64,000 bases of DNA, taken from positions 1-64,000 of the forward strand of contig NIVC01001470.1 in assembly GCA_002269645.1 (NCBI GenBank). The letters are read 5' to 3'. Positions 1-34,861 of the stretch are shown here, piece after piece; position 1 is the stretch's first letter, and each line of letters begins with the position of its first letter. The translations under genes were made by a program, and so were the position numbers. This DNA is from Macrostomum lignano. Lineage: Eukaryota. The notes below the pieces were generated by a model that saw nothing but the letters and a program-made list of their open reading frames with translations, did not search any database and had not been told where the DNA came from.

Positions 1-719
1 TATTTGCCTTATTTAGAGTACTTTTTCTATCTATTTTCTACTTCTATTGTTCGTATCAGTAGTAGTACTCGTAATAATACATACACGTGAAGGAAAATAA
101 ATATACCTTACTATTATGAACAGCCAATTCATGGCTCTGATTCACTGTTGCCAGGAGCAGTAATCCAGCTAATATTTGTAAAAATATTTTCCTTTTGTGC
201 GTTTTCAGTTTGTTTCGCAGGTCTGAAACTAAATAAATACACATAAAGTTTTATTATAATAATACAAGTTGTTCTTTCATTGTTATTTTTCTGAAGTCAA
301 CGAGTTACTTAACTGATTTTTGCATTCCTTTTGCCTGCATGATTTGACAAGCAACCCCGACTAGAATTTTAATACACTCAATGCAAGAAGTTTTTAAAAT
401 TTGTATCACTGATTAGCTCGTGTGTTGCTTAAATGATCACTGATCAATATCAATTTCGACCATAATACGTGTGCGTGTATTGATTTTGCATGTATACCAT
501 CTATATGTGGTTGACTCAGAGTGGATTATAGTTTCAGGACAACAACGTGAGAAAAAAACAGCATGGGATAGCTGATGCTGCACTATATTATGCATGTACA
601 TGTAGATATTTAGCAGACCATTTAAGACCTATAACTCAAGGGTGTCGCCACGTGGGGGGGATGGGGATCATGTCCCCCCCCCCCGTGAAAGTCAATATTT
701 GCTTCAGGGCGACAAATAT

Positions 720-1581
720 TGATGTGTTCCTTATTACCCGACTTTCGATAATCAAGGAACAATCACTTCTAGCTCAACAGCTAGGCAACCCAGTAAGTCA
801 AACGAAGGTATTCAATTACCTTTAATCCGGATTTGAATTTCTTGAGTAGTTCTCGCTAGAACTTGTCAGTAGATCTCGTAGATCAGGCGCCTTGATTCTT
901 CAGTTGCTCTGGTCCTGGTTCCTCTTGTACTTCCGATAAGTTCTTCCGGCCGGTATCTTCCGTCAGGACCAATCAGAGGCCTCGTAGCAACAATGGGTAC
1001 CCTGCGCCAAACTGCGGTCTAAATTAAGCCTCCTTCTTCTAGCAGTGCCTCTATGCACTCTAGGTATAGCTCCGGAAACCACTGATAGTCCTCTAAGATC
1101 TATCAGGGGCAGTCCTTCTGGAGACTGCAACCAATGGAGTCTAAACAGACTCAAGAGTCTCAACAGACTCAATTAGACTCAAGTCTCAATAGACTTGAGC
1201 GAGACGTCTCTAACACAACGGCGCAAATAAGGAAGGCTTACCGCAACAACTCGACCGAGTCTCGATTGACTTGGTAGATCAGGAAGTCCTCCTAAGGCTT
1301 CCTCTTCGGAGCGCTCCTCTTCCGTGGGGAGAATGGCTCCGGTACCGCTTCAGATCGCTTGTATTTATAGACAAGTTTTTGATCCAAAATAGTATCATGA
1401 CAATTCACGTGTTGCGCTAAAAGGGGAAAATGGCTCATGGCGTATTATTCTGGTAACATCTTTTTCTGGTAGCGTGATTCATTCAAAGCTTAGGCGCACA
1501 TGCGTGTACTTACTTACTTATAGTAGTATTATACGATTATCTTCTTTTTTCCTTTTTTAACGGGAGGTAGAACACTCTACA
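720..1581 (-). repeat. 3' LTR (862 bp)
   Basis: Matches 11529-12392 except for two single-G indels seen by eye. Minus strand starts TGTAGAGTG and ends GAACACATCA. Confidence 0.96.
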
Positions 1582-1584
1582 AAA

Positions 1585-1596
1585 TCTCCCTTTTTT
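1585..1596 (-). other. Polypurine tract (AAAAAAGGGAGA)
   Basis: Purine run 3 nt upstream of the 3' LTR on the element's sense strand. Confidence 0.8.
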
Positions 1597-1823: not shown

Positions 1824-2456
1824 TCAGCCGAAGCTTGTCCTGAGCAGGCTGCTCACCTGATGCGTGGTTCGCGCCACCAGGGATGCCACTGCCCAGTACA
1901 GCGACTGAAACTTAGTGAATCGCGGATCCTCGGTCCGCTCCAGCAAAAGCAGATAGGCCTCTATGGTCGTAAGCGGTTCTGCTGTACGCACCATAGTCCT
2001 GGCGATGTCTAGTAACCACCGCCAGTCGGCCTGATGCTGAAGCGGCCATGGCCACGTTCGTACGGCGACGGCCAGCTGTTCCAGGGTTAGCTCATCCGGC
2101 TCCGCCAGCGTTAGCTCCGGTACGGCGAGCATCGGTGCCAGTAGTACGGATGCTGTGTTGGACAGCGGAGCCAGGCACACGGTGCACGTCATGATGTCTC
2201 GTGCACCGTACCGCTGAAGACAGCTGAAACACACCCAATGCCGATTTGAACAGAGTCGTACATTGGGCTGGTCGCCGCAAAGGGCACATTGGACCCGCGG
2301 TCTGCGACAGACGGGGCAGGCGGTAAGGATCGTCACGTCGCCAATTTCTCGCGCCCGCTCGTCGCAGGGGAAGCACACCTGGTGCCCCCATTCACAAGTC
2401 GGGAGCATCGGCTCCCGTGCCTCGAGGCAGCAGGGGCAGGTATCCATCTCGGTCAT
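1824..2456 (-). CDS. Accessory ORF B: tandem double RING finger (C3HC4, C-x3-H spacing) protein, 210 aa
   Basis: CPCC-x10-CEWGH-x2-CFPC-x15-CPVC and CALC-x8-CSNRH-x2-CFSC-x11-CTVC. ATG at 2456 is immediately preceded by a branch point and CAG acceptor. Lies inside the LTR element. Confidence 0.85.
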   Translation of the reverse strand: MTEMDTCPCCLEAREPMLPTCEWGHQVCFPCDERAREIGDVTILTACPVCRRPRVQCALCGDQPNVRLCSNRHWVCFSCLQRYGARDIMTCTVCLAPLSNTASVLLAPMLAVPELTLAEPDELTLEQLAVAVRTWPWPLQHQADWRWLLDIARTMVRTAEPLTTIEAYLLLLERTEDPRFTKFQSLYWAVASLVARTTHQVSSLLRTSFG

Positions 2457-2526: not shown

Positions 2527-3195
2527 CTATCGGTGAGACCTAAAAAGCCAAATAAAATAGCTACGTGAGAGCACTAATCGTTTAAGCGCGTGGCAGTATA
2601 CGTGTAGCGTCCAGTGAAATGATTCGTGGTCATGCAAAAACTGCCGCAACCGTCGCTCAATCTCCAAGGGTGACATATGACGCAAAAATCCTTGATTTCT
2701 ATGAGCATATAATAGTAGCTGTCGTCGCGACCGCTGAACGAAGCGAGGTACAGGCCAAAACTCCAGCCGCCGTTCGATACTCATAGCGGTTAAGGTGTGC
2801 ATAGTGTAAACGGATAAACAACGCGCTGGGTCAGGTATAATCCGACACCATTTCTTAAAAGTGTTTTCGCGGGGCATACTGTTACATAAGGGGCATCCTA
2901 TAATGCCCCTACTAGCGGTTTGCTTCAAACAGTGCATGCAAATAAAATGTTGGTGGTTACAATATTGAAACGTGCGCCAAGAATAACAATAGGCACATTG
3001 TCGCAAACTATCTCTACAGAGGGGACAACTCTGCCAGGGCTGAATATAGTGTGAATCACTTAAACATTGTCCGCAAACTTTATGTCCATTGATGCAAATA
3101 GTCGGTGGCTTGACAGCCAAGTCATCAGTTAAACATATCGGGCAGTCATATAGCTGCTGAGGCTGGGGCGCCTGTTTTGACAGTGCGTTGCCCAT
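2527..3195 (-). CDS. Accessory ORF A: N-myristoylation-signal, tandem double RING finger protein, 222 aa from ATG 3195
   Basis: The track start at 3207 is TTG; the first ATG gives MGNALSK. Fingers are CPIC-x12-CINGH-x2-CGQC-x12-CPLC and CAYC-x8-CNHQH-x2-CMHC-x11-CPLC. Confidence 0.85.
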   Translation of the reverse strand: MGNALSKQAPQPQQLYDCPICLTDDLAVKPPTICINGHKVCGQCLSDSHYIQPWQSCPLCRDSLRQCAYCYSWRTFQYCNHQHFICMHCLKQTASRGIIGCPLCNSMPRENTFKKWCRIIPDPARCLSVYTMHTLTAMSIERRLEFWPVPRFVQRSRRQLLLYAHRNQGFLRHMSPLEIERRLRQFLHDHESFHWTLHVYCHALKRLVLSRSYFIWLFRSHR

Positions 3196-3315: not shown

Positions 3316-6300
3316 CTAGCGTGGTCGTAGGTTGTAGCCATGTGGCTGGCTCACATCTGTCGTTTGAGTCTCCTCGTGCTTCGTCGCGATGTGGCGGTTC
3401 GTTGAACGCGTGCGATCAGCGTTGTCTAATGTCGGTAGAAACGTCGCTGTGTCAGTGTTGATCTTCTTTAGTCGATGAATGTGTACGTAGAACTGGTGCT
3501 GATGTGGATCTTGTACATTAGCCAGGCGTGCCGTTGTTGGTGACGTTAGTTGGACCACTCGATAGGGTCCTTTGTACTTCTGTGCATGTTTATGCGTCTG
3601 CTGTGGCGGGTAGTGTAGGTAGACGATGTCGCCGGCCGTCAGGGTTGTCGATCTCGCGTCGTTGCCGGTGGTCAGAGCCACCTGGTTGTCAATGTTGTGC
3701 TTGGCGATCTTCCATGCGAGGTGTAGTTGCGTGACGAATTTCTGAATGGAAGTCGGTACTTCCACGTACTGCGATGGTAGCAATTGCTGTGCGAGCAGAT
3801 TCGGCGGTTGGAAGTCTCGTCCAAACATTAGGAAGAATGGCGTATTGTCCGTTGATCGATGAATAGCGCTGTTGTAGGCCATTGTTACAGATTGCAGGTA
3901 GATGATCCAGTCTTCCGGCTGTTGGTGCGCGAAATGTGTAATCATCTCGTGCAGGTTGCGGTGAAACCGTTCAACCATGTTTGCCTTCGGATTGTAGGTC
4001 GATGTGTAGATCTGCGTAATGTTGAGAATCCTTACGACTTGCTGAAACAGTTGCGATGTAAACTGCGATCCGTTGTCCGATGTGAGGTTCTTCGGCGTGC
4101 CGTACTTGCAAATGATTTCGTTGAAGAAACTCATTGCCACTGTCTGAGCTGTGATGTCCGGTATCGGTATGGCGATAGCAAACTTCGAGAAGATATCCAA
4201 GGCGGTTAGAATGTAGGTGTAGGCGATGCCCTGGAGACAGCTCGGTGGTAGCGGTCCGGTGATGTCGATGCTTAGACAGTCCATTGTAGTCGACTTCGGA
4301 ATGGACTGTAGCTGCGGTTTCTGTCGTCGTCCTGTCTTTGATGCAGCACATGAATGGCAGTTGTTGCAATACTGCTTGATGTCGCCGTACATAGTTGGCC
4401 AAAAGTAGTATTGTTCCACTCTCGCGATGGTCTTTGCTGCCGACAGGTGTCCAGCGAGTGGGTTGTCGTGTAGCTCGTTGAGAATTGCTTGCCGAAACGA
4501 ATATGGTATGTAGATCTTGGGTTTATTGTCGCTCATCCAGTAGAGCCGTGACTTATTGATTGTTAGGTGTTGTCGTTGCTTGCGTAGGAATTTTCGTTCC
4601 ATGGGACTGAGTTTGATGTTCTTGTCGTCGTCTTTAACCGCTTGGTAGAAGTTGTCGCGCTCGGTTTCATCCACCAACTCCTTGATGTTAGGGATTGGAT
4701 GAATGGCGTTGACTTCATAGGCTCTTGACAGGGCGTCCGCGGCTTTGTTGGTAATTCCTGGTTTGTAGACGAGTTTGTAGTTGTAATCCTGGATCTTGAG
4801 TGTCATTCTGATGAGTCGGTTGTTGGTCTGTCCTTTTGTAGTTACGACGTAGGTCAATGGTGCATGATCCGTGCGTACTATCGTCTGTATTGGAGAACCA
4901 TAGATGTAGTAATGAAACTGTCGCAGGGCGAACAAGACTCCTAGTAGCTCTCGTTCCGTAGCTGACCACTTTGTTTCATTTGGTTTGAGTGCTCGACTGA
5001 CGTAGGCAATAGGTCGTTCCTTCTTGTCCTCGGTTTCCTGTAGTAGGACTGCTCCGAGTCCCGTTCCTGAGGCGTCTGTCTCGATGATGAAGGGCTTGTC
5101 GAAGTCCGGATGCTGTAGCAGTGCGTCTGATGTCAGCTGTCGTTTGATTTCGTCGAAACTTTCCTGTTGTCTCTGTGTCCAGTTGTCTTGCTTCCATTTG
5201 TCGAACTTGAGCAGGTCGTACAGTGGCTTTGCTGTCTTTGCGAAGTTAGGTAAGAACTTCCTGAAGTATTGCGCAAGTCCAAGGAATGATTGGACCTTCG
5301 TTATACTGGTTGGCGTAGGAAACTTCTTCACCTTTTCCACGTTGTCTGGGTCCGGTGAGATTCCTTTGGCTGTCACCTGATGTCCCAGGTAACGCACGTT
5401 GTCTCGGAAGAATTTGCATTTAGTTGGTTGTAGCTTCAGACCTTGGCGTTGAATGAGCGCTAGGGCCTTCTCCGTAGCTTCGTAGAGTCGCTCGAAATCC
5501 TCTCCGTAGGCTAAAATGTCGTCGACATAGTGCAGCAGGTTCGTGCATCCTGCTAGCATGTATGCTGTTAGTCGACTCATCGTTGCTGGGCTGTTGCTAA
5601 GTCCCATCGGCGATCGATTGTACTCGTATACTTGTCCATTGTAGGTTTTGAAAGCCGTGTACTGTCGTGACTCTTTCTCGATTTCAATTTGCCAAAATCC
5701 ATGACGTAGGTCGAACACCGTGAACAATTTTGCCGTGTTGAGCTTTGCTAGTAGTTCGGAGATCTTCGGTAGGCTTTGCTGATCCGTCGGTATGTACTTG
5801 TTCAACAGTCTGAAGTCGCATACGAGTCGTCTTTCGTTTGTCTCCTTCTTCTGTACCAGTAGGCACGGTGAGGAGTAAGCCGAAATAGCTTTGCTGATGA
5901 TGCCGTGCTTTAGCATTTTATCGATGATTTCGTCAAAGTGTTGTTGCAGATGCTTGGCGATCGGGTACGGCTTGCACTGAATTGGTTCCGTGTGCGGCAG
6001 AAGTTTGATTTCCTGTTTGATGTCCTTGGCTCGTCCGATGTCGTAATCATGATGGCAGAAGGCTTCGTTGTACTTCCACAACAGCTGTCGAACTTTCCTC
6101 TTTTGCTGTTCCGTAATCGGGCTGTCATCCAAATTGATCTTCTTTTGAAATTCTTCCTCTGTTAGTCGTGGAGTCGCTTGTTCAATCAGCATAACCGATG
6201 CTTGGGTGTTGAGATGACCGATGCACATTCCTTGTCGTAGATGAACCGTTTCTGTGTTCGGGTTGAAGATTTGTACTGGCAGTTGCTTATCCTTTGCAAC

Positions 6301-9300
6301 CAGCACTAGTGCCGTAGGCATCATGATTTGATGTTTTGCCGTGACTCTCCTGTGTGGATCAAATATCATTGCTTCATCTGCCGCGCTGGTCGTTTTCGCT
6401 CTGACCCAGCATGCGCTTTCAGGCTGGATAATGACATCTTGCTGCAGAGTTACTTTCGGTAGTACTCGAATCTGGTTGATCAGCGGTTGCTCCACCGTGT
6501 CGATCCTAAACGTTTGCTTGTTGAAGTCGAAGGTCAATGGTAGTTGAAGCTGCTTGAACGTGTCGATTCCAACGATGACGTCTTGGTTTGGTAGTCTGTC
6601 GATGATGTACGTCGGGACCGTCAGCTGTTTATTAGCAATTTTCAAGTCGATATCTGCTTTTCCTAGGATGTTGAGTGAATGTCCTCCTGCTCCTGCAACT
6701 GCGATTGCTGCTGGTCGTACCGCGAGTCGTAGCTTGTTGCATAATTGTTGCGAGATGACTGTGATCGAGCTGCCTGAATCCAGTAGTGCTCGACATGGCA
6801 AGTTGTTGACAATGACCTGAGCCATTGCTTTGCCAATCTCGGCGTGTAGCGTACAGACGTAGTTTTCCGGCCATTTTGGCTCGTGCTGTTCTGCTTGATA
6901 GTTGGGTGGTTGTATCCTTGGTGCCGTTGGTGTTGTCGGAATCGATGGATATAGCCGCGTTGCTAGTGTCGGTTGCCCTTGAACCTCACAATGTGCAGTT
7001 TCTGTTAGTTCTAAACTGTTGTCGCTTTCCGTTGTCGTTCTTTGCATTATGGCATTCACTGTCTTCTTAGCTCTTGGACAAGTTTGACTGAAGCACCGTA
7101 CGATCGATGAAATGATGAAGATTGCCGTGACAATCCACACAATGCAAGCACCGTAGAAGATGAATCCTTGATAGAGACTGCCTCTTCCATTGAGCAGCTC
7201 CCAGAAGCTATTTGTCCAAAATGATTTGATGGCGCTGTCCATTGAAACAAGGACGGGAAATCTTCCTGTCCCGGTTCCTTTGTCCTTTCTTGTGAACAGC
7301 TGGTGAATCATCTTGCGTTGGGTGATGAACGCTTGCAAGAAGTCGTTGATCGTCCATCCTGGTGTTATCTCGTCAAGTTGGATATCGGCGAATGGCGTAT
7401 ACTTCGTTCTGTTGAATCGGATTTTCAAATCCTCCATGTCGTAGTTTTCGTCGACGATTACTTCCGGTTCTGTGACGTTTGCTGTCGTTCCAGTTGTTTT
7501 GATGACGTGTAGTGCATTGTCCAGTTGATAGTAGTTTACTGCCGTGGTGCAAGGTCTCGGTATTGCGGTGCCAACGATGATGTTGTGTACCGTGTCCAAG
7601 AATCCCTGAATTCGTTTTCCTTCGTAGAACGCTTCAATCCTTGGCTTATCGTAGCAGGTTGTTGACGTGTTTGACGGCAAGATGTTAAAGTGCTGTATCG
7701 GCGTGCACTTGTATATCAACAGATGCTCGTATATTGGAACTGCCAAAACGTTCGTCATTCCGGTGATTTTACGAAAAGTCATCGTAGGGTTGACATAGTA
7801 GTTTTGTCTGGCATAATTTAAGTTGATTGCGTGCATTTTGCAAGTTAGCTGGACCAGTGTTCGATGCAAGTGGTTTAACTGGTTGTGTAGATTGTGATCC
7901 AAAGCCGTTATCTTTGCTGACAACAGCCGGTTTGACACCAGTTTGGGACGTTCGATGTCACGTCGTCTTCTATTCTGTTTTTCTTGTTGCTGATACGTTC
8001 CATTGATGATTGCCAAGAAGGTTTGTTTGTCTTCATCCTTTACGTAGACTGGTATCTCTTGTTCCGAGATGAATAGTGTCTTGTCTGTATCCTTGCATTT
8101 CAGTTTTTGCTCGACTGGTTTCTTTTGAAACGTCAGTGCCAAGTCTCCTGACTTTGCCAAAAACGTATTTGACAGTAGTCCTCCTTCAACTGTGTGATAC
8201 TTTTGAAGCTTGCAGTCAATTTCCGGCTCAACTTCCCACGCGAAGAAGTATTGTCGTGATTTGTACGGTTCCTCATAGTGTGATTGTGCTCTGTGCTCAA
8301 TCTGCCATCGATAGTCTTGATGATATGTTGGACTCAGTGGTAGACTGTGTAGTTCTTCCTTCCGTAGAATCGGCGTTGGACACCATCCTTCACTGTATCG
8401 ACATTCGCTTAGTTGCAGCTGTAACGATTCCATTTTCTCGTACGGATTGTAGTAGAATGGAATATTTCTGATCAAGTAGCTGTTGCGTGCCATATATTCT
8501 TTCCATTTTCCGAAGAAGTGAATATATCGACCGTTGGCTGAATTCTTTGTTCTGAACAGCTGTGCGTTGCCGACCTTCTCATCTGGTTCCAGTTCACCAT
8601 CCTTTGAAAATAGTGTTTGATTCCATTGTAGGCATTCCGCGTGCGACACATGTAGCTCATGTTGTTTAAATCGGATCCGGTTCCATTGTCCGCGCCAAAC
8701 TTTTTCCACCAGGTGCTTGTCTCTGAAGCATACTATCCCGTGTTGTCGATGCTTCTTGATGTTAGCCTTGTAGAGATCGAGTGTAATCTTCTTTGGTTTT
8801 GTCTGGTTTGTCTTGAAGTAACTGCATTTGATGTCGGTTGGTATCTTGTAGATCATCGGTTGGATATGCGCATCCGTTGGACAAATCATTGGCTTTTCCG
8901 TTGCCGTTGCTTTGGCGACTACTGCTATCAGTAGTATCACGATGATCCAGAATAGCCAGTTTTTCCACTTCTTGGATTTTGCCGTTGTCCTTGCTGGCAT
9001 TGGCTGCGATCGCCATTCGTTATCTTCCATGTCCGCATCATATTCTTTCGGTTGTTCCATTGGCTGATCCAGGCGGAAGGCTTCTGATTCGCTTTGCTTT
9101 TTGGTTATTTCATTATCTTCGTCTGCGGCTTCTTCCGATGTTTCCGTTGTTTCACTCCATTGCGTTTGGTATCTTTTCTCTGTCTTGTAGTCGACCGTTT
9201 GAATATAGGCTTCACCATTTCGTTTGTATCGGATCTCGTAGCATTCGTCGCTGTCGGAACTCGGCTTTTCTTTCACCTGTTCTTTTTCCATTTCTTCATC

Positions 9301-10812
9301 TTTCCATTGTATTTCGTAGCCTTGATCGCTGTCGGAACTTAGATTCTCCGCTCTCGGTTCTTCCTGCATTCCTCTTTCGGCTTGGTAGTCGTTCGTGTCA
9401 TCACGCACCTCGCAGTCGTGGTCGTTGCCGTAACTTCTACATTCTTCTTCTTCTTTCATTTCTTTGTCTTTCATGCTCGTTTTGTCGTCATCCACTGTTG
9501 TCGATTCATAGTTGTTTTCTTCGCCGGTTTTCATCTTTTCTTCGTTGCCGATGTCGCTCTCCGCCTCCTCCCTTGTCTTGTGATTTACTTTCTTCCTGTT
9601 TTCTCTGCTGTCTCCGGTGGTCTCTTTTAATTTGATCATTTCGGTTTCATTCGTCTCTTTCGTGTTGTCAGTGTTGTCCTCGTGCGTCGTCTTCTTTTCG
9701 ATCAAGCTGATGTCAAGTTCCGGGACTGTGAAGTCCATTTCCAAGTCGTCAATTGTGAACACTTGCTGTTCTTGCTGTTCATTTTCCGGTGTGTACGTGA
9801 TGGCATTCGCGTATCGTGGCATTGCTTGCGTCGGCTGTCTTTGTGTGTATCTGACGTTGCGTGGCCTGTAGCCATTACTTCTGAAGCGGCCTTCGTTTCC
9901 GAAGCGGCCATCATTTCCGGAGCGGTCATTATTTCCGAAGCGTCTATCATTTCCGAAGCGTCTCATTCCTTGTTGTTGGCGATTTTGATAGTGCTGCCAT
10001 GGTTTCTGCGGCTTCTGATTGTTGAATATCTGTCGCGGCTTGTCGTATCTTGTTGACCAATGAGGACAATTAATCTGATAATGTCCTTCTTGTCCGCAGT
10101 AGTAACATCTGGCTGAGGCTTGTTCATTTCGTCTTTTTTGTTCGGCGATAGCAGCTGTCTGGTGCTGCATTAACTTGTTTAGTTGCTGCGTCAGTTTCTG
10201 CACTTCATTGTTGCCTGTCGTCATTAATGGGGCACTGGCTTCCCATTGCATTCCGCAACGCAAAAGGTCTTCTTCGGTTTCGATATTTTCACGCAAAAGT
10301 CTATCCCGAAGTGACGGCTGTGCGTTGTTTATTACGTGCAGGATGAGGTTTTGTTCACGATCCATCAATCGTTGTCTTTCTCTGGCGGCCAATTCTGCCG
10401 CTCCCAGTGGTGGTTGGTCCGCAGCTTGCAGCGGTGGCTGATGCAGTGCCTTAATTATCTGGCGGATATCGTCCACAAAGGCGAGGAAGGATTCTGTTGC
10501 TTGCATCCTTCTGTTATGCAACTTGTGCAGCAGCACTGATCTGTTTGTGCCGCAACGGTTGAAATGCGCGCGCAGTTGAATGATTAGTGCTGGATAATTT
10601 TGCTGTGTTGCCGCATCCAGCTTGCCGTAAATTTCTCGCGCAGTACCTTGGAGAAGAGGTGGCAGCAGCTGTGCCTTCTCTGGATTTTGTAGGTTGTATT
10701 CCCTACATACCAGGTCAAAATGGTCGACAAATGTGTTAAAATCTTTCTCCATCGAGAAAGTACCGACCGTTTCTTTGATGTCTCTGTGTACCGTTGGATT
10801 GCGCCGCGCCAT
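3316..10812 (-). CDS. gag-env-pol: Gag-Env(gB-like)-Pol polyprotein, 2498 aa, single frame
   Basis: Gag capsid-like N-terminus and zinc knuckle CYYCGQEGHYQINC (10066-10107); signal/TM WLFWIIVILLIAVVAKA (8908-8958); furin site RRRR (7960-7971); TM (7099-7167); protease LLDSGS (6772-6780); RT YVDD (5518-5529); RNase H TDASG (~5070); integrase H-H-C-C, D,D(35)E core and KGPY. Confidence 0.97.
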   Translation of the reverse strand: MARRNPTVHRDIKETVGTFSMEKDFNTFVDHFDLVCREYNLQNPEKAQLLPPLLQGTAREIYGKLDAATQQNYPALIIQLRAHFNRCGTNRSVLLHKLHNRRMQATESFLAFVDDIRQIIKALHQPPLQAADQPPLGAAELAARERQRLMDREQNLILHVINNAQPSLRDRLLRENIETEEDLLRCGMQWEASAPLMTTGNNEVQKLTQQLNKLMQHQTAAIAEQKRRNEQASARCYYCGQEGHYQINCPHWSTRYDKPRQIFNNQKPQKPWQHYQNRQQQGMRRFGNDRRFGNNDRSGNDGRFGNEGRFRSNGYRPRNVRYTQRQPTQAMPRYANAITYTPENEQQEQQVFTIDDLEMDFTVPELDISLIEKKTTHEDNTDNTKETNETEMIKLKETTGDSRENRKKVNHKTREEAESDIGNEEKMKTGEENNYESTTVDDDKTSMKDKEMKEEEECRSYGNDHDCEVRDDTNDYQAERGMQEEPRAENLSSDSDQGYEIQWKDEEMEKEQVKEKPSSDSDECYEIRYKRNGEAYIQTVDYKTEKRYQTQWSETTETSEEAADEDNEITKKQSESEAFRLDQPMEQPKEYDADMEDNEWRSQPMPARTTAKSKKWKNWLFWIIVILLIAVVAKATATEKPMICPTDAHIQPMIYKIPTDIKCSYFKTNQTKPKKITLDLYKANIKKHRQHGIVCFRDKHLVEKVWRGQWNRIRFKQHELHVSHAECLQWNQTLFSKDGELEPDEKVGNAQLFRTKNSANGRYIHFFGKWKEYMARNSYLIRNIPFYYNPYEKMESLQLQLSECRYSEGWCPTPILRKEELHSLPLSPTYHQDYRWQIEHRAQSHYEEPYKSRQYFFAWEVEPEIDCKLQKYHTVEGGLLSNTFLAKSGDLALTFQKKPVEQKLKCKDTDKTLFISEQEIPVYVKDEDKQTFLAIINGTYQQQEKQNRRRRDIERPKLVSNRLLSAKITALDHNLHNQLNHLHRTLVQLTCKMHAINLNYARQNYYVNPTMTFRKITGMTNVLAVPIYEHLLIYKCTPIQHFNILPSNTSTTCYDKPRIEAFYEGKRIQGFLDTVHNIIVGTAIPRPCTTAVNYYQLDNALHVIKTTGTTANVTEPEVIVDENYDMEDLKIRFNRTKYTPFADIQLDEITPGWTINDFLQAFITQRKMIHQLFTRKDKGTGTGRFPVLVSMDSAIKSFWTNSFWELLNGRGSLYQGFIFYGACIVWIVTAIFIISSIVRCFSQTCPRAKKTVNAIMQRTTTESDNSLELTETAHCEVQGQPTLATRLYPSIPTTPTAPRIQPPNYQAEQHEPKWPENYVCTLHAEIGKAMAQVIVNNLPCRALLDSGSSITVISQQLCNKLRLAVRPAAIAVAGAGGHSLNILGKADIDLKIANKQLTVPTYIIDRLPNQDVIVGIDTFKQLQLPLTFDFNKQTFRIDTVEQPLINQIRVLPKVTLQQDVIIQPESACWVRAKTTSAADEAMIFDPHRRVTAKHQIMMPTALVLVAKDKQLPVQIFNPNTETVHLRQGMCIGHLNTQASVMLIEQATPRLTEEEFQKKINLDDSPITEQQKRKVRQLLWKYNEAFCHHDYDIGRAKDIKQEIKLLPHTEPIQCKPYPIAKHLQQHFDEIIDKMLKHGIISKAISAYSSPCLLVQKKETNERRLVCDFRLLNKYIPTDQQSLPKISELLAKLNTAKLFTVFDLRHGFWQIEIEKESRQYTAFKTYNGQVYEYNRSPMGLSNSPATMSRLTAYMLAGCTNLLHYVDDILAYGEDFERLYEATEKALALIQRQGLKLQPTKCKFFRDNVRYLGHQVTAKGISPDPDNVEKVKKFPTPTSITKVQSFLGLAQYFRKFLPNFAKTAKPLYDLLKFDKWKQDNWTQRQQESFDEIKRQLTSDALLQHPDFDKPFIIETDASGTGLGAVLLQETEDKKERPIAYVSRALKPNETKWSATERELLGVLFALRQFHYYIYGSPIQTIVRTDHAPLTYVVTTKGQTNNRLIRMTLKIQDYNYKLVYKPGITNKAADALSRAYEVNAIHPIPNIKELVDETERDNFYQAVKDDDKNIKLSPMERKFLRKQRQHLTINKSRLYWMSDNKPKIYIPYSFRQAILNELHDNPLAGHLSAAKTIARVEQYYFWPTMYGDIKQYCNNCHSCAASKTGRRQKPQLQSIPKSTTMDCLSIDITGPLPPSCLQGIAYTYILTALDIFSKFAIAIPIPDITAQTVAMSFFNEIICKYGTPKNLTSDNGSQFTSQLFQQVVRILNITQIYTSTYNPKANMVERFHRNLHEMITHFAHQQPEDWIIYLQSVTMAYNSAIHRSTDNTPFFLMFGRDFQPPNLLAQQLLPSQYVEVPTSIQKFVTQLHLAWKIAKHNIDNQVALTTGNDARSTTLTAGDIVYLHYPPQQTHKHAQKYKGPYRVVQLTSPTTARLANVQDPHQHQFYVHIHRLKKINTDTATFLPTLDNADRTRSTNRHIATKHEETQTTDVSQPHGYNLRPR
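7099..8958 (-). other. env: Envelope glycoprotein domain, class III fusion (herpesvirus gB/chuvirus G-like), inside the polyprotein
   Basis: Cys-rich ectodomain with N-glycosylation sequons (NQT, NGT, NTS, NVT, NRT) and an RRRR site. VNPTMTFRKITGMTNVLAVPIYEHLLIYKCTPI and CYDKPRIEAFYEGKRIQGFL...PRPC parallel, from memory, the gB NP...C and CYSRP...GQL...EPC blocks. Not confirmed by HMM. Confidence 0.8.
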
Positions 10813-11508: not shown

Positions 11509-11526
11509 GAGAGGGCGAGATCACCA
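11509..11526 (-). other. Primer binding site (TGGTGATCTCGCCCTCTC), primer tRNA not assigned
   Basis: Starts with TGG 2 nt after the 5' LTR end (CA). Confidence 0.7.
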
Positions 11527-11528
11527 AT

Positions 11529-12392
11529 TGATGTGTTCCTTATTACCCGACTTTCGATAATCAAGGAACAATCACTTCTAGCTCAACAGCTAGGCAACCC
11601 AGTAAGTCAAACGAAGGTATTCAATTACCTTTAATCCGGATTTGAATTTCTTGAGTAGTTCTCGCTAGGAACTTGTCAGTAGATCTCGTAGATCAGGCGC
11701 CTTGATTCTTCAGTTGCTCTGGTCCTGGTTCCTCTTGTACTTCCGATAAGTTCTTCCGGCCGGTATCTTCCGTCAGGACCAATCAGAGGCCTCGTAGCAA
11801 CAATGGGTACCCTGCGCCAAACTGCGGTCTAAATTAAGCCTCCTTCTTCTAGCAGTGCCTCTATGCACTCTAGGTATAGCTCCGGAAACCACTGATAGTC
11901 CTCTAAGATCTATCAGGGGCAGTCCTTCTGGAGACTGCAACCAATGGAGTCTAAACAGACTCAAGAGTCTCAACAGACTCAATTAGACTCAAGTCTCAAT
12001 AGACTTGAGCGAGACGTCTCTAACACAACGGGCGCAAATAAGGAAGGCTTACCGCAACAACTCGACCGAGTCTCGATTGACTTGGTAGATCAGGAAGTCC
12101 TCCTAAGGCTTCCTCTTCGGAGCGCTCCTCTTCCGTGGGGAGAATGGCTCCGGTACCGCTTCAGATCGCTTGTATTTATAGACAAGTTTTTGATCCAAAA
12201 TAGTATCATGACAATTCACGTGTTGCGCTAAAAGGGGAAAATGGCTCATGGCGTATTATTCTGGTAACATCTTTTTCTGGTAGCGTGATTCATTCAAAGC
12301 TTAGGCGCACATGCGTGTACTTACTTACTTATAGTAGTATTATACGATTATCTTCTTTTTTCCTTTTTTAACGGGAGGTAGAACACTCTACA
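11529..12392 (-). repeat. 5' LTR (864 bp) with TATA box (TATAAATA at 12180-12173)
   Basis: Direct repeat of 720-1581, followed by the PBS. An ATTAAA poly(A)-like hexamer lies near the LTR 3' end. Confidence 0.96.
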
Positions 12393-12980
12393 ATATATAG
12401 CGCCTGCGGCACCAAACACGAGTTCCTGCAGCGCAAAAAATGCCTGCGACGCCAAATGAGCGCTGACAACACCGATTCTAAAAATAATGTAAAATGTTAA
12501 AATGTATAATTCTTGCGGCTTAATTTGTTCCCCACCATAAAATCAATCTTGTGACGCCCCTGCCACAACAGTACATGTAACTCACAAACCTTCTGTCGTA
12601 AATGCACATGCAAGTCGTATATAGCCAGTAGAAGTGACTAAAAAGAGAATCAAAGTTGTAGATGGGGTTGGTACATGTTTGTTAGCCCGACAAACGACGA
12701 GAGTGTAGGCCTGAAGCCATAACCATGCCTAGACTCATTCGTCTTTTTCTCTTTTGATTTCCATTTACCTTAAGATATTGAGTTTAAATACTTTTAGTAT
12801 TTTTAACATTAATTTACTTGCACTTCTTATTCATACAGCGAAAATATTTTTACTTCCTTTTAAATATTAGTTGACGTATGCTCCGGTATCTGAGGCTTAC
12901 TCTATGTTTCAAGTAAATAATTGTCGTAAAACACGAAAATGTTCATGTATTACTACCACATTAAAGACAGTGTTGCCTAG

Positions 12981-13138: not shown

Positions 13139-14911
13139 ATGTGGCTGTCGAGCTTTTTGGCATTTGCTCTGCTTGCTCTCGCATGCGGTGAAGTTTACTT
13201 CAAGGAGGAGTTTTTAGATGGTAAGTTAGTTCTCGCTCTGACGTTTATTTTGTTTAGATTCTCAAATTCCCTTGTGTTGCTGCAATACTAGAATAGGGCA
13301 TTGTCTTGTTGGTTTTCTTCATTTCAACCATATCAGAATATTAAAGTAACTAAAAATAGTATTGAAATCATTCCATTCTTTTTAACTTTGCACATTCAAG
13401 CAGTTAAAATAACCCCCTTGTGTTAGCTTTGCATTTTGTTCTAAAAGAATAAACTGTGGTTACTGGTTTACTTTTTTATAGTTTTTGAAAGATAATTCAT
13501 TAAAAAGGCTTCTATTATTGAGTATGAGAGAGAAAGGAAGTATAGGTTTCTAGCTAGCTACTTTAATTTAATTGTAACATATTATAAGATTGTTTTATAA
13601 CTTCACAATTTTTTTGTTTCCTTAAAGACTATTTGTATATATATATATTGCCTATCTTTACATTTTTCTATGTTTCTCCTAATGTAAAATCCTTTGATTT
13701 AAATATTTATTTTTTTCTTTTAATTTTAATTATATGCTTTGCTAATTTGTCTTCACAAAATATTTATTTCAGAGTCATGGAAGGATCGGTGGGTAGAGTC
13801 AACCTACAAGGGTAATGACCAAGGCAAATGGGAATGGACTGCTGGCAAGTTCTACAATGATGCTGAAAAGGACAAGGGAATAAAAACCTCCCAGGATGCC
13901 AAATTTTATGGCATCAGTGCCAAGTTCAACTCTCCATTCTCCAATGCTGGCAAGACTCTGGTGATCCAATTCCAGGTCAAGCATGAGCAGAACATTGACT
14001 GCGGTGGTGGCTATGTCAAAGTCCTTGGCAGCGATGTTGACCAGAAGAACTTCCACGGCGACACACCCTACAAGATCATGTTTGGTCCTGATATCTGCGG
14101 CCCTGGCACTAAGAAGGTGCACGTTATCTTCAACTACAAGGGCAAGAATTTGCTCACCAAGAAGGAGATTCGCTGCAAGGATGACGAGCTAAGCCACCTG
14201 TACACCCTGATTGTGAAGCCTGACAACACCTACGAGGTGCTGATTGACAACGAGCGAGCCGAAGGTGGAGAACTCGAGGCCGACTGGGACTTCCTGCCAC
14301 CCAAGAAGATCAAGGATCCGGCCGCCAAGAAGCCAGACGACTGGGACGAGCGCGAGAAAATTGACGACCCGAACGACAAGAAGCCGGAGGACTGGGACAA
14401 GCCCAAGACCATCCCGGATCCCAAGGCCAAGAAGCCGGACGACTGGGACGACGAGATGGACGGCGAATGGGAGCCGCCGATGATTGACAACCCGGACTAC
14501 AAGGGCGACTGGAAGCCCAAGCAGATTGACAACCCGGCCTACAAGGGCAAGTGGATCCACCCGGAGATTGACAACCCGGACTACTCGCCGGACCCCGAGC
14601 TGTACAAGTACACCGACATCGGCGCCATCGGCTTCGACCTGTGGCAGGTGAAATCTGGCTCCATCTTCGACAACGTCTTCGTTGGCGACGACCCGGCCGA
14701 GGCCAAGGCCTTCGCCGACGAGACCTTCAAGAAGACCGTCGAAGGCGAGAAGAAGATGAAGGAGAAGCAGGACGAGGAGGACAAGAAGAAGGCGGAGGAA
14801 GAGGAGAAGAAGCGCAAAGAGGAGGAGGAGAAGAAGAAGGCCGAGGAGGGCGACAAGAAGGAAGCGGACAAGAAGGAGGACGACAAGAAGGACACCAAGG
14901 ACGAGCTGTAG
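13139..14911 (+). CDS. CALR: Calreticulin, two exons (13139-13220, 13773-14911)
   Basis: Exon 1 encodes the signal peptide MWLSSFLAFALLALACG-EVYFKEEFLD, with GTAAGT donor and TTTCAG acceptor in phase 1. Contains KHEQNIDCGGGYVK, IMFGPDICG, P-domain repeats, an acidic tail and C-terminal KDEL. AATAAA at 15029. Confidence 0.98.
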
Positions 14912-21539: not shown

Positions 21540-24500
21540 CTAATTAATGGAGAAGGGTGCAGACTTTCTCTTCCTTGCTCCAGTAGGCACAGTTGCCATC
21601 GGCGCGACCATGAACTCGTACTCAGGCCTGCTCTCCTCCACCGGTGACGATTGTCTCACCTGAAAACAATTCAAGATTATAGGAATTAATAAATGTATGC
21701 TATATGAAATTCTCAAGATTTTCACACAAAGCTTTTATCAAGCTTCACAAACTTGGCATAACCCGCCGGCCAATTTTGTGAACAAGTCGCAAATGATCAC
21801 GTGACCGCGCACGGAATCAAACCAGGGGTCGTGGCGTGAGAGTCGGATGCGCGTTCACCGCTGAGCTGCCCTGCCCCACCCCTTCCGGAACTTACTTTCG
21901 GAGGCTCGGGCGTCACAGAGTCGATCTCGTGAGCCTCCTTTAAGTGCCGATTGAGTAGTTCGAATGTCGGATAGGAGCCGCCGCACTCTGAGCACAGATA
22001 GGCCTCGGCATCGGCGAACTGATGGAGAAAAAAAAAGTTGTTGCGTCATGCTTCAAAAATGGAGCACAAGATCAACTTATTGAGTCCGCATCACCTCAAT
22101 GTCATCGACAATCTCGAAGTGCTGATGATAATCGTCTCTGTCGGACGCGTCTCCAGCATCGATGGCTGAATTATTGTCAAACCGCTGCTCCGAGCTCGAC
22201 TGAGCCGGTTGCGGCGGCGACAAGGGTGAGGACTCATCTTTTCCATTAGCAGCATCGGCCAGAACCAGACTGCCGGGAATTTCTGCAGCCTCTTCCTCCC
22301 CTGCCTCGGCTTCATCAGCGGCATGGTTCTGAATGACGACTAGATTAGAATGCACGCTAGCCAGATGGTCCCGCAGGCGGCCGGCAGTGAGAAAGGCCCG
22401 AGGACACTGCGAGCACCGATGCGGCAGGGACAGCAGCGGACCCTGATCAGCTGTTGAGGGCAGCGTAGGCGTTGAAGCAGCGCGTTAGCTGACGAAGGAG
22501 TCATGGCAGCAGTGGCAGCAGCCGCGGCAGCCGCAGCAGCAGCCGCAGCCCGCCGATGACTCGGTCCGTAGAACTGCGGATGACACTTAGACCGGTGGAC
22601 AACCAGGCCTAGCGAGGAGGAGAACTGCGACGGACAGATGTCGCAGGGAAAAGCCAGCGGCTGGTGTTGCGCCGGGTTCAGACGAGGCGCTTTTGCGGCT
22701 GGTGGAGCGTCGGCTCCGGCAAAGCTCCTGGTGCCACGACAGCTGGTTCGCAAGTGGGCCTCCAGCACATCTTTTCGGCAGTAGGTCTTGCCGCAGTTCG
22801 GGCAGGGGACTCGCTCGCGCTCCGGCTGGGTAGTTACTCGCTGCAGCGGCTGCTGGGGTCGTGAGTCAGCTGGGCCAGTCAGACCCATGAGGCTCCTGCG
22901 GGTTGCGTGCATTTTGTACATATTAGACTCGGTTTTTTGGTATAATTTCTTAGTGTCTTAGATGCTTGCCTATCTGTCTTCTTGTCAGTCTTACCTAGCA
23001 ACAGAGGGCTGCTGCTGAGGCGGCGCCGGTGGCGGCATCTGCCGCTGTCTGACCTGCTGCTGAGCAACTTTATTCAGACTGCAGACGGCGGTGTGCCGGT
23101 CGAGCGACGCCCTATCAGTGAAAGTCTCGTTGCACATCGAGCACTCGTGCTCCTCGTCTTCGCAGTCCAGCAGCAGCATCTGGCCAGAGGCGGCCTCATC
23201 CGATTCCTCCTCGTCCTGCTGTCCGAGGTCGCCGCGGCTGTTTGGAAGAGCAGAGGTGCCGTGCTGCTGGCAGAACCGACGATGGACAGTCAGATTATCA
23301 GCGTACTGGAATGTCCGATGGCACATATCGCAGCGGTGGCTGCTGCCAGTTTCTGGGATCACCTGTACAGAAGTCGACGGACACACTTCAGATTGGAGCT
23401 GCTGCTGCTGTTCCTGTTGCTTCTGAGCCTCGCAGAAGTGGCGCGCTAAATGGCAGGGCATGCGGAATTCGCGATGGCAGAGCTTGCAACTAACCGAATC
23501 GTTGGAGTGAACCACGCTGTGCTTAACGAGGTTGGCAGTGGAGCTGAAGGACCTGCCGCACTCAGTGCAGTCAAATTTGGCTGCAGACTGCTGGCCCGTC
23601 GGAGTGTTGGAAGGTCAGATTGATTGAGTCAAGGCGGGAGTTTATAGAAAACTGTTTAGTTAAGTTTAAATATTAAATAAACTGCATTTGCTCACACATC
23701 ATTACAAGATTATAAAAATGTAAGTTTACCTGTAAAACAGCGAAGATATTATTTGTTGACTTATATTTTGGCATGATCTTCTCAATAATAGTTTTAGGGT
23801 TTCTGAATTTGGAATCCTTATAACTGGATCAGATCTGACAGATTGACATCGATGAAACACTGTGGGGCAGGGGGCTTCGTTCAAACGAACGATAGACATT
23901 AGACGAGGTCCAGTTGCCATAGACTATTACTTTCGAGCTGTTCAGGGATGATGCGTTTCCAGAATTTCCTCATTCATTCGTGGGGACTGCTTAACTTGAC
24001 ATGCGGACAAAATATGCTGAGCAAAAATGGCCTAATAGCGGTTTCTGGTAATAACGCTGGTGATTATCAAGTGGTTCCTGCACAACCCCCAATGTAAACC
24101 CGTACAATCTACAAAGTAAAGGAAGAATGTGAAACAGCTAAGATTGTAGAGGAAGAGGGTAGGGCGTGGAGAAATATGAGAGCAAAGTTTATAGAATAAT
24201 TACGAGGGGCCTATAAAAGCAAGATCCCATACGTTTTCACCACGTAAAAATACTCACATGCGATGTTGATCCGTCCATGGGTACTCCAGCCATGGAGACT
24301 AGGTCTCCCATCTCCAGCTCGCCGTCGGCCAGCGCTTCGGCGAAGCAGCGTCCGAGATGATCGCACAGGAAGTACCTGTCAGCGAAGACTTTGCCACACT
24401 TCGGACAGCCGGCCCGAGACGAGGCCGCCAATGTCCAGCTGCCAGTGTCAGAGATCTGCAGACGGCCTTCCATGGACAAGTCCTCGCCTCTGTCGCCGCT

Positions 24501-26749
24501 GTCGTTGCCGTCCTGGTCTAGACAAGCAGCATTGGTCAGTCCGTTAGAAGACTTCAACACACCGGTGCCGAACTTGTGCACCCGATTGTGCTGAGCCAGG
24601 CTGCGCGCCGACGGAAAGCAGGACTGGCAGATGCTGCAGAAATGCCGGTCGGGTCGGTCTTGCGATGCCGACATCGACACCGAGGATGGAGATGATGAAG
24701 GTGAGGCTTCTGGTGACAGCTCGCCTGGTTCTCTAGCGCTGGCAGCGGCAGCAGTATCAGATTGACTGACCGCAGCCCAGTGCACTCGAATGTGGAGCAA
24801 AAGACTGCGCCGGCTGCTGTGCACTGTGTGACAGAGGTGGCACATGAAGCGGACTAAGCGGTCTGACTCGCCGTCTTCCGACTCGTCATCAGCGGGTGGC
24901 AGCGGCTCGTCGGTGGCCTGGTGTCGTTCAACTAGATGTCGCTTTAACTCATCGGCAGAGCCGAATGCGGCCTCGCAGCAGTGACAGACGAACACGATGT
25001 CTTCCTCGTCCCCTTCTTCAACGTCGTTAGCAAAGTCCTCCGTAGGTTCATCGGCTGTCTGCGGCTGGGTCCCCTGCTTGGACATCGACGGGCCGTACTT
25101 GTGAATCCGCAGGTGCTGACTGAGGCTACTGGGCTTGTCAAATACTCGGCCGCACTCGCCGCAACGACAGACCTCGTTGTTAAAGGCATTCGTCTTGATT
25201 CTCAGCGTCACCTTGCTCGAAGATGAATCCGGTGCAGCCGTTTCTGCCGCTGCACCTGTCACTCCACCAGAAATAGACGATGTCGACGCAGTCTCCATCA
25301 GCGGCACAGTGATGCTGATACCGTTCTTCTTGCGCGCCTCGCGTCGCTTTAGCGCTCGCTCCGACATCTCCTTGGGGTTACCGCAGGCGCTAATCTGGCT
25401 GGGTACAAATCGAAGAGGAACAATGCCGAATTTTCCAGCCTTCCACTCCTGGTACTGCTCATGGTGGAAGTAGATGCAGTGCTTGCCCATGCCCTTGGAG
25501 AAGATTAGCTCGCCGCAGAACGGACACGGTGTGGCCTGCTTGTCATCGTCGAAATGGGTGGGGTTAGCAGCAGCGGCGGGCGCGGTTGCGGCTGCTCCTG
25601 ACGCCTTGTTGCCGTTGCAAATGACTTCAGCAGACGCCGATTTCACGGAGGGCGGCGGTGTCGACGGCGTGGGTGTGGCCGGATCGGATTCGTCCAACTC
25701 AATTTCTTCTTTATCCATCGATCGCTGATCTGCATCCTCTTGCATCTCGTCGATGGTAATCTCATCCGACTGCTTTGTGAACTGATCGTACTCGTTGAGC
25801 GTCTGGCTGAGGATGTCCGGGTTTGGTTTCACGTAACGCAGCTGAACGGAGCCGAACTTGCCGTTCTTCCAGCTCGTGTACTCATCGAGGTGGTGATTGA
25901 CACAATGCTTGGCGAGGCCTTTGATTGTAGTTTTGTGCGTGATGCAGAACGGGCAGTTGATGTCGAGTGGATTCTCGTTGGTGTTAAACTCCAACTTGCC
26001 TTCCTTGCTCATAAAGAACGGCGCCGTGGTTGCTAGCTGAGTCTTCAGCTTTGATCGTTTCCCAGGCCGCTGCGCTAGAAGACCATTAGAGCTTGGAATT
26101 CTACGGATTGGCTCCGGTGTTGGCGCAGCCTTCGTCTGCAGTTGCTGGTCGTTGGTGGATGGGCCAGACAGGTTGGTGGAGTCATCATCGACCTCGTCAG
26201 CACCATCTAGAACCATGCCTGTGACCAACGGCTCTTCTGTGTCCTCGACAATCGGCGGGCCCGTCCTTTTCATGGCTACACCAGCAGCACTGGACACGGA
26301 AGACTCCTCGGAGGCGTGAAAACTGCGGATCATCTCCTTGGTCAGGTCCATTAGGCGGATGCTGCGGCCAAACCAGCCGGACTTCCAGGCGGCGTACACA
26401 CCATTGTGGAAGCACATGTAGTGCTTAGCAACGCCCTTCTTGCTCTTGATGGTGCCGCTGCACTCTGGGCAGACAATGACGACCTCATCTAGCGACGCTT
26501 GACTGACGGAGCCGACGTTGGTCACTGGCACTGTTAGCGTGAGGATGTCTCCCTTTGCAGCGGACACCATCCGTTGATGGTCGTCGGAGGATGCCGAATC
26601 AGCCAAGTTCACCCCGGGCTGGCCCTGCCCACCAGGCTGTGGGCGTGGTGCTTCTTGCGCAGGTGCTTGTTGAGACTCTTCTCGGACGAATAGGCCTTAG
26701 TGCACAGGCGGCAGTGGTGAAACGGACTGTCGTCCAGTTTGAGGCTCAT
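21540..26749 (-). CDS. Multi-exon C2H2 zinc-finger protein (exons ~26749-24258, 23590-22995, 22895-22095, 21659-21540) with two apparent 1-nt frameshifts
   Basis: More than 10 C-x2-C...H-x3/4-H(C) fingers. GT/AG sites are phase-compatible (0, 2, 0). Frame restoration is needed at ~26615 and ~22485 to link a leading CRLC finger and the CSQC...HLASVH finger. Confidence 0.8.
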
Positions 26750-33103: not shown

Positions 33104-34861
33104 ATGACGCAGGATGTGGCGACTCAGCCATCGTCGGCTCAGAAGCAGCCAGCTCGGCGGCGAGCCCGTCAGATGAGGGGCTATCATGGCGCTCGTACTG
33201 ACGCTGCCATTCCGCTGACCTTCAAAGATCCCGACCCGGAGTCTCCACCGCCTCCGAATCAGTCTGCTGCTGCCGCGCAGCCGCAAGCTGCTGCAGCAGT
33301 CAGCCGACACTGTCGAAAGAGTCAACTGGAGCAGTTGCGAAGCGACCTCGAGAAGCTGGGCCAGCAGCTGGCCTCACTGCGCGGCGGTGGAGCGGGCCCA
33401 GCGCAACCAGATCCAGCGAAGCAGCCTGAGAAGTCGCCGCTGAAGCTCCAGGCACCGAAGAAACCATCGCCGCCACCGTCGCCACCGAAGCAAACATCGC
33501 CAACGCCCCCACCGCCGCAGTCATCCCCGCCTTCGTGGAGGCGAAGGATGGTGGCAGCGGCAACGACAGCAACAGCTGCAGACAAGGAGACCAAAGAAAC
33601 TTCTAAAACTGAGACAACACTCAGAATGGAAATGGCGTTGAACAACCACCAGTGGTTGAGGAGGCGACTTCGACGCGAGTGGAACGGAGGAGGCCCCGGC
33701 GTCGCCGGTCCCTAAACGAGGACGAGTCAGCACCACACGGAGCCCGCAGAGCCGGCGGAGCTCGGAGGCGAACCCGCCGTGGCGCTGGCCTCCTGTGCAA
33801 GGAGAAATCACCTTATCGAGATGACTCAGACGGCCATCTGATCTATGCGTTCGGCGACGTACTAAAAGATCGCTACCGGATCGCTCGCACACTTGGCGAG
33901 GGAACCTTTGGCAAGGTGACGGAGTGCATTGATATGCAAGACCTCTGCCAGACTCGCGTTGCGGTGAAGATTGTGAAGAATGTTACTAAGTACCGTGAAG
34001 CAGCCATGCTTGAGATCAACGTTCTCAAGAAACTTGAGGAAAACGACCCTAACGGAAGGCATCTGTGCATCCGACTACTGAGTTGGTTCGACTTCTTTGG
34101 CCACGCTTGTCTTGTGTTTGACTTGCTTGGCAAGTCAGTGTTTGATTTTTTGAAGGAGAACGACTTTGCTCCCTACCCAATTGAGCATGTGCGACACATA
34201 GCCTACCAGCTGGTGTACTCAGTGGCTTTTCTGCACGCCAATCAGCTCACCCACACCGACCTCAAGCCTGAGAACATCCTGCTGGTGAAGTCCAGCTACA
34301 CGACTTTCTACAATCCGCGCCGCAAAAGGAAGAGCGAATGCTTGACCGCACCGACATCCGACTGATTGATTTCGGTTCGGCAACCTTTGACCACGAGCAT
34401 CATTCGAGCGTGGTATCGACCCGTCACTATCGCGCACCGGAGGTCATCCTGGATCTTGGCTGGGCGCAACCGTGTGACGTCTGGTCCATCGCTGCATTCT
34501 GTTTGAGCTGTACACCGGCTTCACCCTGTTCCAGACGCACGAAGATCGCGAGCACCTGGCCATGATGGAGCGAGTGCTCGGCCATGTGCCCTACAGAATG
34601 ACTCGAGCCTCGCGAGCCGGCCTCTTCCGGCATGGCAGGCTCGATTTCGACCATCACGGAGTTGAAGGCCGATTTGTGCGCGAGAACTGCCGCCCGCTGC
34701 ATAGATACCTGCGAGACGAGACGGTCGATTCGCGCAACCTCCTGGATCTGATGCAGCGGATGCTGGAATTCGAGCCGGAGGAAAGGACGACGCTCAAAGT
34801 TGCGCTGCATCATCCGTTTTTCGCCTCGATACCGCCGGAATCAGTTCTGCACTCGGGCTAG
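33104..34861 (+). CDS. CLK: LAMMER/CLK (Doa-like) dual-specificity kinase; start uncertain; three apparent 1-nt frameshifts (~33610, ~34328, ~34492)
   Basis: [49 protein letters not shown] and [11 protein letters not shown] motifs lie across three frames with no intron in the kinase domain. Confidence 0.9.

Follow-up and report, generated by a model that had tools for sequence, protein, structure and literature searches.

A 64,000-nucleotide stretch of the genome of the flatworm Macrostomum lignano (contig NIVC01001470.1, positions 1 to 64,000; hereafter the window) carries near one end a retrotransposon in which the coding sequence for a viral-type envelope glycoprotein lies between those for Gag and the protease. 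The locus raises the question of what this glycoprotein is, how one continuous translation product could place Gag, Env and Pol where each would act, and how far such an arrangement has already been described. A sequence-only reading of the DNA had proposed that a gB-like class III fusion glycoprotein is inserted in frame between Gag and protease, and that the polyprotein crosses the membrane in the manner of flavivirus and alphavirus polyproteins.

Structure and Classification of the Element

The element is an intact LTR retrotransposon that spans 11,673 nt on the minus strand of the window, the strand on which all of its features are given below. Its 5' LTR (11529..12392, 864 nt, with TATAAA at LTR position 213) and 3' LTR (720..1581, 862 nt) have TG...CA ends; they are separated by two 1-nt indels, which fall in runs of C, and by no substitutions, and insertion was therefore very recent. 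The LTRs are bordered by an ATAT target-site duplication (upstream copy 12393..12396, downstream copy 716..719), the primer-binding site (PBS; 11515..11526, reverse complement GCGAGATCACCA) lies 2 nt past the 5' LTR, and a polypurine tract is found at 1585..1596. No canonical triple heat-shock element was detected in the LTR, and no tRNA gene fitting the PBS occurs within the 64-kb window.

Two TG...CA LTRs, a target-site duplication, a PBS and a polypurine tract are marks of Ty3/gypsy LTR retrotransposons, and the Pol domains follow the order protease, reverse transcriptase, RNase H and integrase (PR-RT-RH-IN), with a gypsy-type RNase H and integrase zinc domain (PF17919, PF17917, PF17921, PF00665). 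This order rules out Ty1/copia and is shared by BEL/Pao. The element is an intact, recently inserted, env-carrying Ty3/gypsy retrotransposon of the GAG-ENV-POL HSV/gB type.

A Single Gag-Env-Pro-Pol Reading Frame

One ORF of 2498 aa (3316..10812), with no internal stops, encodes in succession Gag, an acidic spacer, a first transmembrane segment (TM1), a 577-aa ectodomain with a furin-type site, a second transmembrane segment (TM2), a tail and PR-RT-RH-IN. The region that had been singled out as the in-frame glycoprotein (8958-7099) corresponds to polyprotein residues 619-1238. A run of 627 stop-free codons would be expected by chance with a probability of 2e-16 at the local base composition; stops number 95 and 85 in the other two frames. 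The region lacks any in-frame -1 slippery heptamer, and a -1 frameshift model gained no support. The claim that Env is inserted in frame holds, with many copies in agreement.

The Gag capsid region (aa 1-230, boundary approximate; 10123..10812) is assigned by position, with a weak Pfam match (DUF1759, E 0.0014), and is 73.5% identical to that of a divergent subfamily. It is followed by a nucleocapsid CCHC zinc knuckle (aa 236-249, 10066..10107; PF00098, E 0.003), from which approximately 370 aa, 23% of them D or E, extend to TM1. Most of this interval is occupied by an acidic, fast-evolving spacer (aa about 341-605, 8998..9792), where identity to the divergent subfamily is 22.6%, as against 63-68% in the ectodomain.

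Within the lineage the length of the spacer is constant and its sequence is not; in distant relatives it measures 75-350 aa and is mostly less acidic.

Beyond TM2, a tail or linker of ~90 aa (aa 1239-1325, 6838..7098), with a candidate protease site at residue 1252, leads to the aspartic protease recognized by Pfam (aa 1330-1426, DSG at 1345; 6535..6825). The reverse transcriptase core (5374..5853, YVDD at 1762; PF00078, E 6e-28), RNase H (4783..5181; PF17919, PF17917) and the integrase zinc-binding and core domains (3988..4509; PF17921, PF00665) follow, with Pfam spans of 1654-1813, 1878-2010 and 2102-2275, respectively; for the zinc knuckle the Pfam span is 236-251.

The linker between protease and reverse transcriptase can be dUTPase-like. 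This identity is not claimed here, as the linker has no PDB match and no relevant Pfam match.

The Env Ectodomain

The ectodomain (aa 639-1215, 7168..8898) had been described as a Cys-rich, glycosylated domain of ~600 aa. Six N-glycosylation sequons are present and its length is 577 aa, but the term Cys-rich was an overstatement, since the 12 Cys amount to 2.1% of residues as against 1.6% in Pol. A furin-type site, RRRR, was found as proposed (aa 948-951, 7960..7971); in an AlphaFold model it lies in a low-confidence loop ahead of a long central helix of 47 residues. Two putative fusion loops are suggested by the same model, the first (WRGQW, aa 706-710, 8683..8697) at the tip of a long beta hairpin and the second, which is aromatic (aa 763-770, 8503..8526), at a hairpin end.

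Searched alone against Pfam, the insert matches Monjiviricetes_fusion with an E-value of 1e-5 and 24.2 bits, below the cut-off of 27. A search of 1.84 billion representatives yielded 71 relatives, 45 shorter ones of which were aligned with the window copy; Monjiviricetes_fusion is matched by 22 of the 46 members of this alignment and herpesvirus gB by two. When the ectodomain profile was compared with the PDB, all 44 matches (E up to 10) were to herpesvirus gB, the best with an E-value of 9e-16. Structure prediction from the alignment gave a pLDDT of 77 and a pTM of 0.55, and all 32 Foldseek rows against the PDB were gB (best E 4.7e-21), at whole-chain TM-scores of only 0.40-0.46. The top Foldseek matches in a viral structure library were rhabdo-like, nyami-, orino- and chuvirus glycoproteins, herpesvirus gB and entomopoxvirus proteins. 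In a wide structural search the top five matches were gB chains (Z 9.4-11.3; the best with Z 11.3, rmsd 8.0 and 410 aligned residues), followed further down by thogotovirus and vesiculovirus glycoproteins at Z about 6 and by PH domains at Z 5-7. A PH-like domain, a long central helix and extended fusion hairpins, all marks of class III proteins, are visible in the model.

Profile comparison, AlphaFold with Foldseek and the wide structural search thus concur in supporting a predicted gB-type class III fold, in keeping with the identity first proposed. The fold, the domain order and the furin loop before the central helix would be common to the window Env, herpesvirus gB and the Monjiviricetes, chuvirus and nyamivirus glycoproteins, at 10-14% identity. 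Unlike the window Env, these glycoproteins are encoded by stand-alone genes and carry an N-terminal signal peptide.

Gene Order in Relatives and in Published Systems

Elements of the same order had been suggested as a check on the arrangement, and they exist both in divergent M. lignano families and more widely: of the 71 relatives, 22 have a protease after env, 14 combine zinc knuckle, env and protease in one record, six contain all domains through integrase, and none has reverse transcriptase or integrase ahead of env. One record (P0065) has env near its end and nothing recognized upstream. Some of the 71 records come from automatic gene modelling, and splicing may have been predicted into them.

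The novelty implied by the sequence-only reading did not survive comparison with the literature. According to the available parts of a recent survey, elements of Nematoda, Bryozoa and Platyhelminthes have exclusively gB-type ENV, arranged GAG-ENV-POL, the gB-type ectodomains can be flanked by two transmembrane segments, and the elements are classed as Ty3/gypsy by HMM (Chary and Hayashi, eLife 2026, PMC13524379). The same parts credit Sacco et al. 2022 (PMID 35550022) for the nematode case, in which ENV and POL are flipped; these non-canonical endogenous retroviruses have nematode hosts, unlike the flatworm element of the window. Among our relatives, a protein of the nematode Globodera rostochiensis (P0052) contains zinc knuckle, env, PR, RT, RH and IN in 2517 aa. 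The non-canonical nematode elements are reported to encode gag, env, pro and pol in one uninterrupted ORF, with a glycoprotein like those of RNA viruses, and their accessory ORFs are said to encode a helicase or a small hypothetical protein, not a RING protein. Like the window element, the Anakin elements of mosquitoes are LTR elements that encode a gB-fold glycoprotein, theirs being chuvirus-like and in some cases forming a fusion with proteins of the element, but they belong to the BEL/Pao superfamily, unlike the Ty3/gypsy window element (PMC7642597, available parts).

The survey also lists, in its available parts, an M. lignano element, Platyhelminthes_Rhabditophora_Mlig_errantivirus_2 (ENV_HSV), with 16 copies, a span of 10,591 nt, an LTR at 0-863 and a PBS at 865-877 with the reverse complement GCGAGATCACCA (PMC13524379). 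On these published values, it shares with the window element the host, a gB-type Env, the gene order, a 864-nt LTR and a multicopy state, and the PBS is identical at 12 of 12 positions with the same 2-nt offset from the LTR. The published span is shorter than the 11,673 nt of the window copy, but a short 3' variant of the window element, described below, would span 10,614-10,623 nt, within 23-32 nt of it. We therefore consider it very probable that the window element belongs to the Mlig_errantivirus_2 family, a judgment based on host, LTR, PBS and length, not on published sequence. Three motifs of the window Env occur in none of the seven supplements of the survey as available, and the flatworm Env rows shown there are from Schmidtea only (PMC13524379). 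The available main text makes no mention of a polyprotein, a single ORF, or in-frame or fused genes.

The gB-type GAG-ENV-POL arrangement has thus already been published and the window family is probably catalogued, so that its finding adds little in itself. M. lignano supports transgenesis (PMC12801592, available parts), and together with the many young copies this makes topology, processing and RNA forms accessible to study in the natural host.

Copies, Families, and Selection

A UniRef protein annotated as M. lignano is 98% identical over the part of Env that it covers. In the animal's own genome at least 74 Env matches were found (70 scored of 262 candidates). Near-full matches number 38, of which 12 lie in open frames of at least 2350 aa and 26 in shorter frames; two of the 12 have 61-62% identity. 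The subfamily with 62% Env identity has one ORF of 2480 aa with the same order of domains, and a third family (P0006, annotated M. lignano), at 28% Env identity, has four copies with frames of 2859-2866 aa.

Twelve copies on separate contigs have an env that is 100% identical at the DNA level. Of the 30 loci compared, these 12 are identical and the other 18 are diverged, with an ectodomain dN/dS of 0.04-0.11 in every one; against the 62% subfamily, ectodomain dN is 0.26 and dS is saturated. Env is under purifying selection.

Copies of the element (L013-L030) are mosaic. One, L029, is 99.8% identical in gag and spacer and 90.8% in env, and three others (L017-L019) are 93% identical in env but reach 99.9% over the protease part. 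Such mosaics suggest that subfamilies have recombined. The P0006 protein carries a long Thr/Ser/Pro-rich, mucin-like insertion at residues about 990-1190, directly before its furin site. Long frames of 2396-2818 aa on six contigs (G000:C759, C3266, C362, C1512, C1695 and C3805) are related to P0006, and some of the P0006-related matches on long-frame contigs cover the env region; additional gag-env-pol families probably exist in the genome. The contigs G000:C2121, C1130, C87, C669 and C2447 each bear several copies or fragments near one another, which suggests tandem arrays or insertion clusters.

Proposed Membrane Topology and Processing of the Polyprotein

The internal signal and second membrane segment that had been proposed correspond to hydropathy peaks at residues 620-638 and from 1216. 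TM1 (aa 620-638, 8899..8955; Kyte-Doolittle 2.41) is a predicted internal signal/anchor with a putative signal-peptidase site near its end, and TM2 (aa 1216-1238, 7099..7167; Kyte-Doolittle 2.43) is the predicted C-terminal anchor of Env. They are the sole hydropathy peaks of at least 1.25 between zinc knuckle and protease. Flank charges are +5 before TM1, on the Gag side, and -1 after it, and 0 before and +3 after TM2. The basic flank of TM1 lies on the Gag side, so that an internal signal would be expected, with Gag remaining cytosolic.

Similar features recur among 15 polyproteins, all of which have a hydrophobic peak on either side of the ectodomain; a furin-type site lies 257-332 aa past TM1 in 12. 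TM1 was found in 12 distinct rows, and in 11 of these the flank before it is positive, a count that omits two rows with TM1 missed and two duplicates. By hydropathy, which is a crude method, exactly two peaks at the threshold of 1.25 occur in six of the 15 only. In three (P0027, P0051 and P0052), TM2 is not the only strongly hydrophobic segment downstream of the ectodomain; the additional one, if it crosses the membrane, would render Pol lumenal.

A topology in which Gag is cytosolic, Env lumenal and Pol cytosolic is plausible for the window polyprotein. The flavivirus- and alphavirus-like topology of the sequence-only reading fits hydropathy and flank charge and is otherwise something that we, too, infer. 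Flavivirus and alphavirus polyproteins combine a cytosolic capsid, an internal signal, a lumenal glycoprotein, a stop-transfer anchor and cytosolic enzymes. The flavivirus C-prM-E-NS and alphavirus structural polyproteins are likened to the window polyprotein in their workings only, with no homology claimed, and, unlike the window element, these are RNA viruses with class II fusogens.

Under the proposed mechanism, Gag would be translated in the cytosol, TM1 would insert with its basic side cytosolic, and the ectodomain would pass into the ER, where signal peptidase may release the N-terminus of Env; the small residues at the end of TM1 would suit such cleavage. TM2 would then halt transfer and return the tail, protease, reverse transcriptase and integrase to the cytosol, where the last two must act, while Env would be glycosylated, trimerize and be cut by furin. 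Gag would stay tethered through TM1 and Pol through the Env tail, both membrane-bound, so that assembly at the membrane would unite all three and would call for neither a Gag-Pol frameshift nor an mRNA specific to env. The element protease would subsequently liberate capsid and enzymes, and the enveloped particle would fuse with an adjacent cell, probably of the germline or a stem cell.

Candidate sites for the liberating step are suggested by a tetrapeptide like that at the RNase H/integrase border, which recurs at residues 335 (after the nucleocapsid), 1252 (in the tail past TM2) and 1445 (after the protease). Its placement suggests that the element protease may cut between Gag and the spacer and between the Env tail and Pol. 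The pattern, which was picked after inspection of the sequence, occurs four times as against 1.15 +/- 1.08 in shuffles; in the divergent subfamily it fits strictly at one position only and is otherwise loosely kept. Overall, cleavage is predicted near residues 636-638 by signal peptidase, at 951 by furin and at about 335, 1252 and 1319 by the element protease.

As a joint explanation, an intact gB-type GAG-ENV-POL element expressed through a tethered polyprotein of this kind is the reading we favour, with a probability of about 0.72. An equimolar ratio of Gag, Env and Pol follows only if all three are translated from the genomic RNA and no spliced mRNA is made. No treatment of the processing of a fused Gag-Env-Pol was found in the literature searched.

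The strongest competitor, which we nevertheless judge improbable, accepts the same element and fold and holds that Gag, Env or Pol is made separately, through splicing or from an internal start, in a ratio other than 1:1:1. Particles normally require far more Gag than Pol, and copia achieves its own balance with a spliced gag RNA; both precedents speak for separate products, the long, fast-evolving spacer could conceal splice signals, and one gene model (P0003) omits parts of the ORF, though it is a chimeric automatic prediction. Against this, the frame is open through spacer and tail at both 62% and 28% Env identity, which would need selection for read-through, and there is no slippery heptamer.

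A second alternative concerns the purpose of Env, which might have been retained not for infectious particles but as an assembly scaffold, for cell-cell fusion or to block a receptor against related elements. Tethering by itself would account for the two transmembrane segments, herpesvirus gB requires partner glycoproteins, and the mechanism by which gB-type elements enter cells is stated in the literature to be unknown. Rhabdovirus-type class III proteins, however, act without partners, and the conservation of ectodomain, furin site and aromatic loop tips, with dN/dS near 0.1, is something that a scaffold would not need; we consider this alternative distinctly unlikely. A third suspicion, that gag, env and pol were joined only by faulty assembly or in a single nested insertion, gains some colour from errors in assembly or copies (26 of the 38 copies have broken frames) but is rejected, given 12 copies on separate contigs with identical env DNA and an order common to divergent families and other phyla and independently published (PMC13524379, available parts).

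Tandem-RING Accessory ORFs

Two further ORFs occupy the interval from pol to the 3' LTR. The first (2527..3195, 222 aa) encodes two tandem C3HC4 RING-like modules and a helical C-terminal part; the second (1824..2456, 210 aa), a paralog with 26% identity, likewise combines two tandem C3HC4 modules with a helical tail. Both ORFs recur in the same position in the 62% subfamily (L051, 8600-9923), and all 16 Cys/His ligands, in two C3HC4 modules each, are invariant in the four proteins, at 21-39% identity. One of the four passes a Pfam cut-off (PF13920, 30.1 versus 27 bits), and the two from the window fall below.

The 3' region occurs in two variants. In the long variant the distance from the pol stop to the LTR is about 1733 nt; in the short one it is 674-683 nt in all six short loci examined, where only the start of ORF 1 is kept, with both of its modules intact in five. 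Young copies identical to one another exist for the short variant too, and ORF 2 is therefore dispensable for copying within the genome. A relative of ORF 2 lies 4.5-5.4 kb downstream in 14 of the 38 env matches, as judged from 27 of 151 ORF 2 matches. These 151 matches in the animal's own genome include many clustered at about 30-40% identity, and among those listed no RING match falls on the contigs of the four full P0006 copies.

Searches for relatives outside, which covered lengths 110-389, returned none at E 0.001, either with a single sequence (93 candidates) or with the four-sequence alignment (753 candidates). The ESM Atlas offered weak leads, viral C3HC4 clusters at 0.91 with recognition below threshold. 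Neither RING proteins nor accessory ORFs are mentioned in the available main text of the survey (PMC13524379), none came to light in our literature search, and the available account of rotifer accessory ORFs contains no mention of RING (PMC5408684). The tandem-RING ORFs thus seem to be undescribed and, if expressed as ligases, would constitute a new kind of accessory gene. Their putative role is conjectural and might lie in countering host defence or in removing surplus Pol.

The most inclusive reading would join these ORFs to the topology discussed above, as a lineage in which a twice-membrane-spanning polyprotein supports tethered assembly without frameshift or splicing and two captured tandem-RING E3 ligases act against host defence or surplus Pol. 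We regard it as doubtful in this full form. If true, it would add an undescribed class of accessory gene to LTR elements, together with an assembly route, both accessible in a transgenic model animal.

Flanking Host DNA

About 1.3 kb from the 5' LTR, a host calreticulin coding stretch ending in KDEL runs on the plus strand (13730-14911). Host C2H2 zinc-finger ORFs (22340-26696, minus strand), a protein kinase exon (33613-34365, plus strand) and an EF-hand exon (39618-40118, minus strand) lie further along. Many minisatellite and microsatellite arrays, 25 rows of them at a score of at least 300, are spread over 16901-60550, for example a 15-mer array at 41669-43655, and most of the long ORFs in that interval are explained by these arrays.
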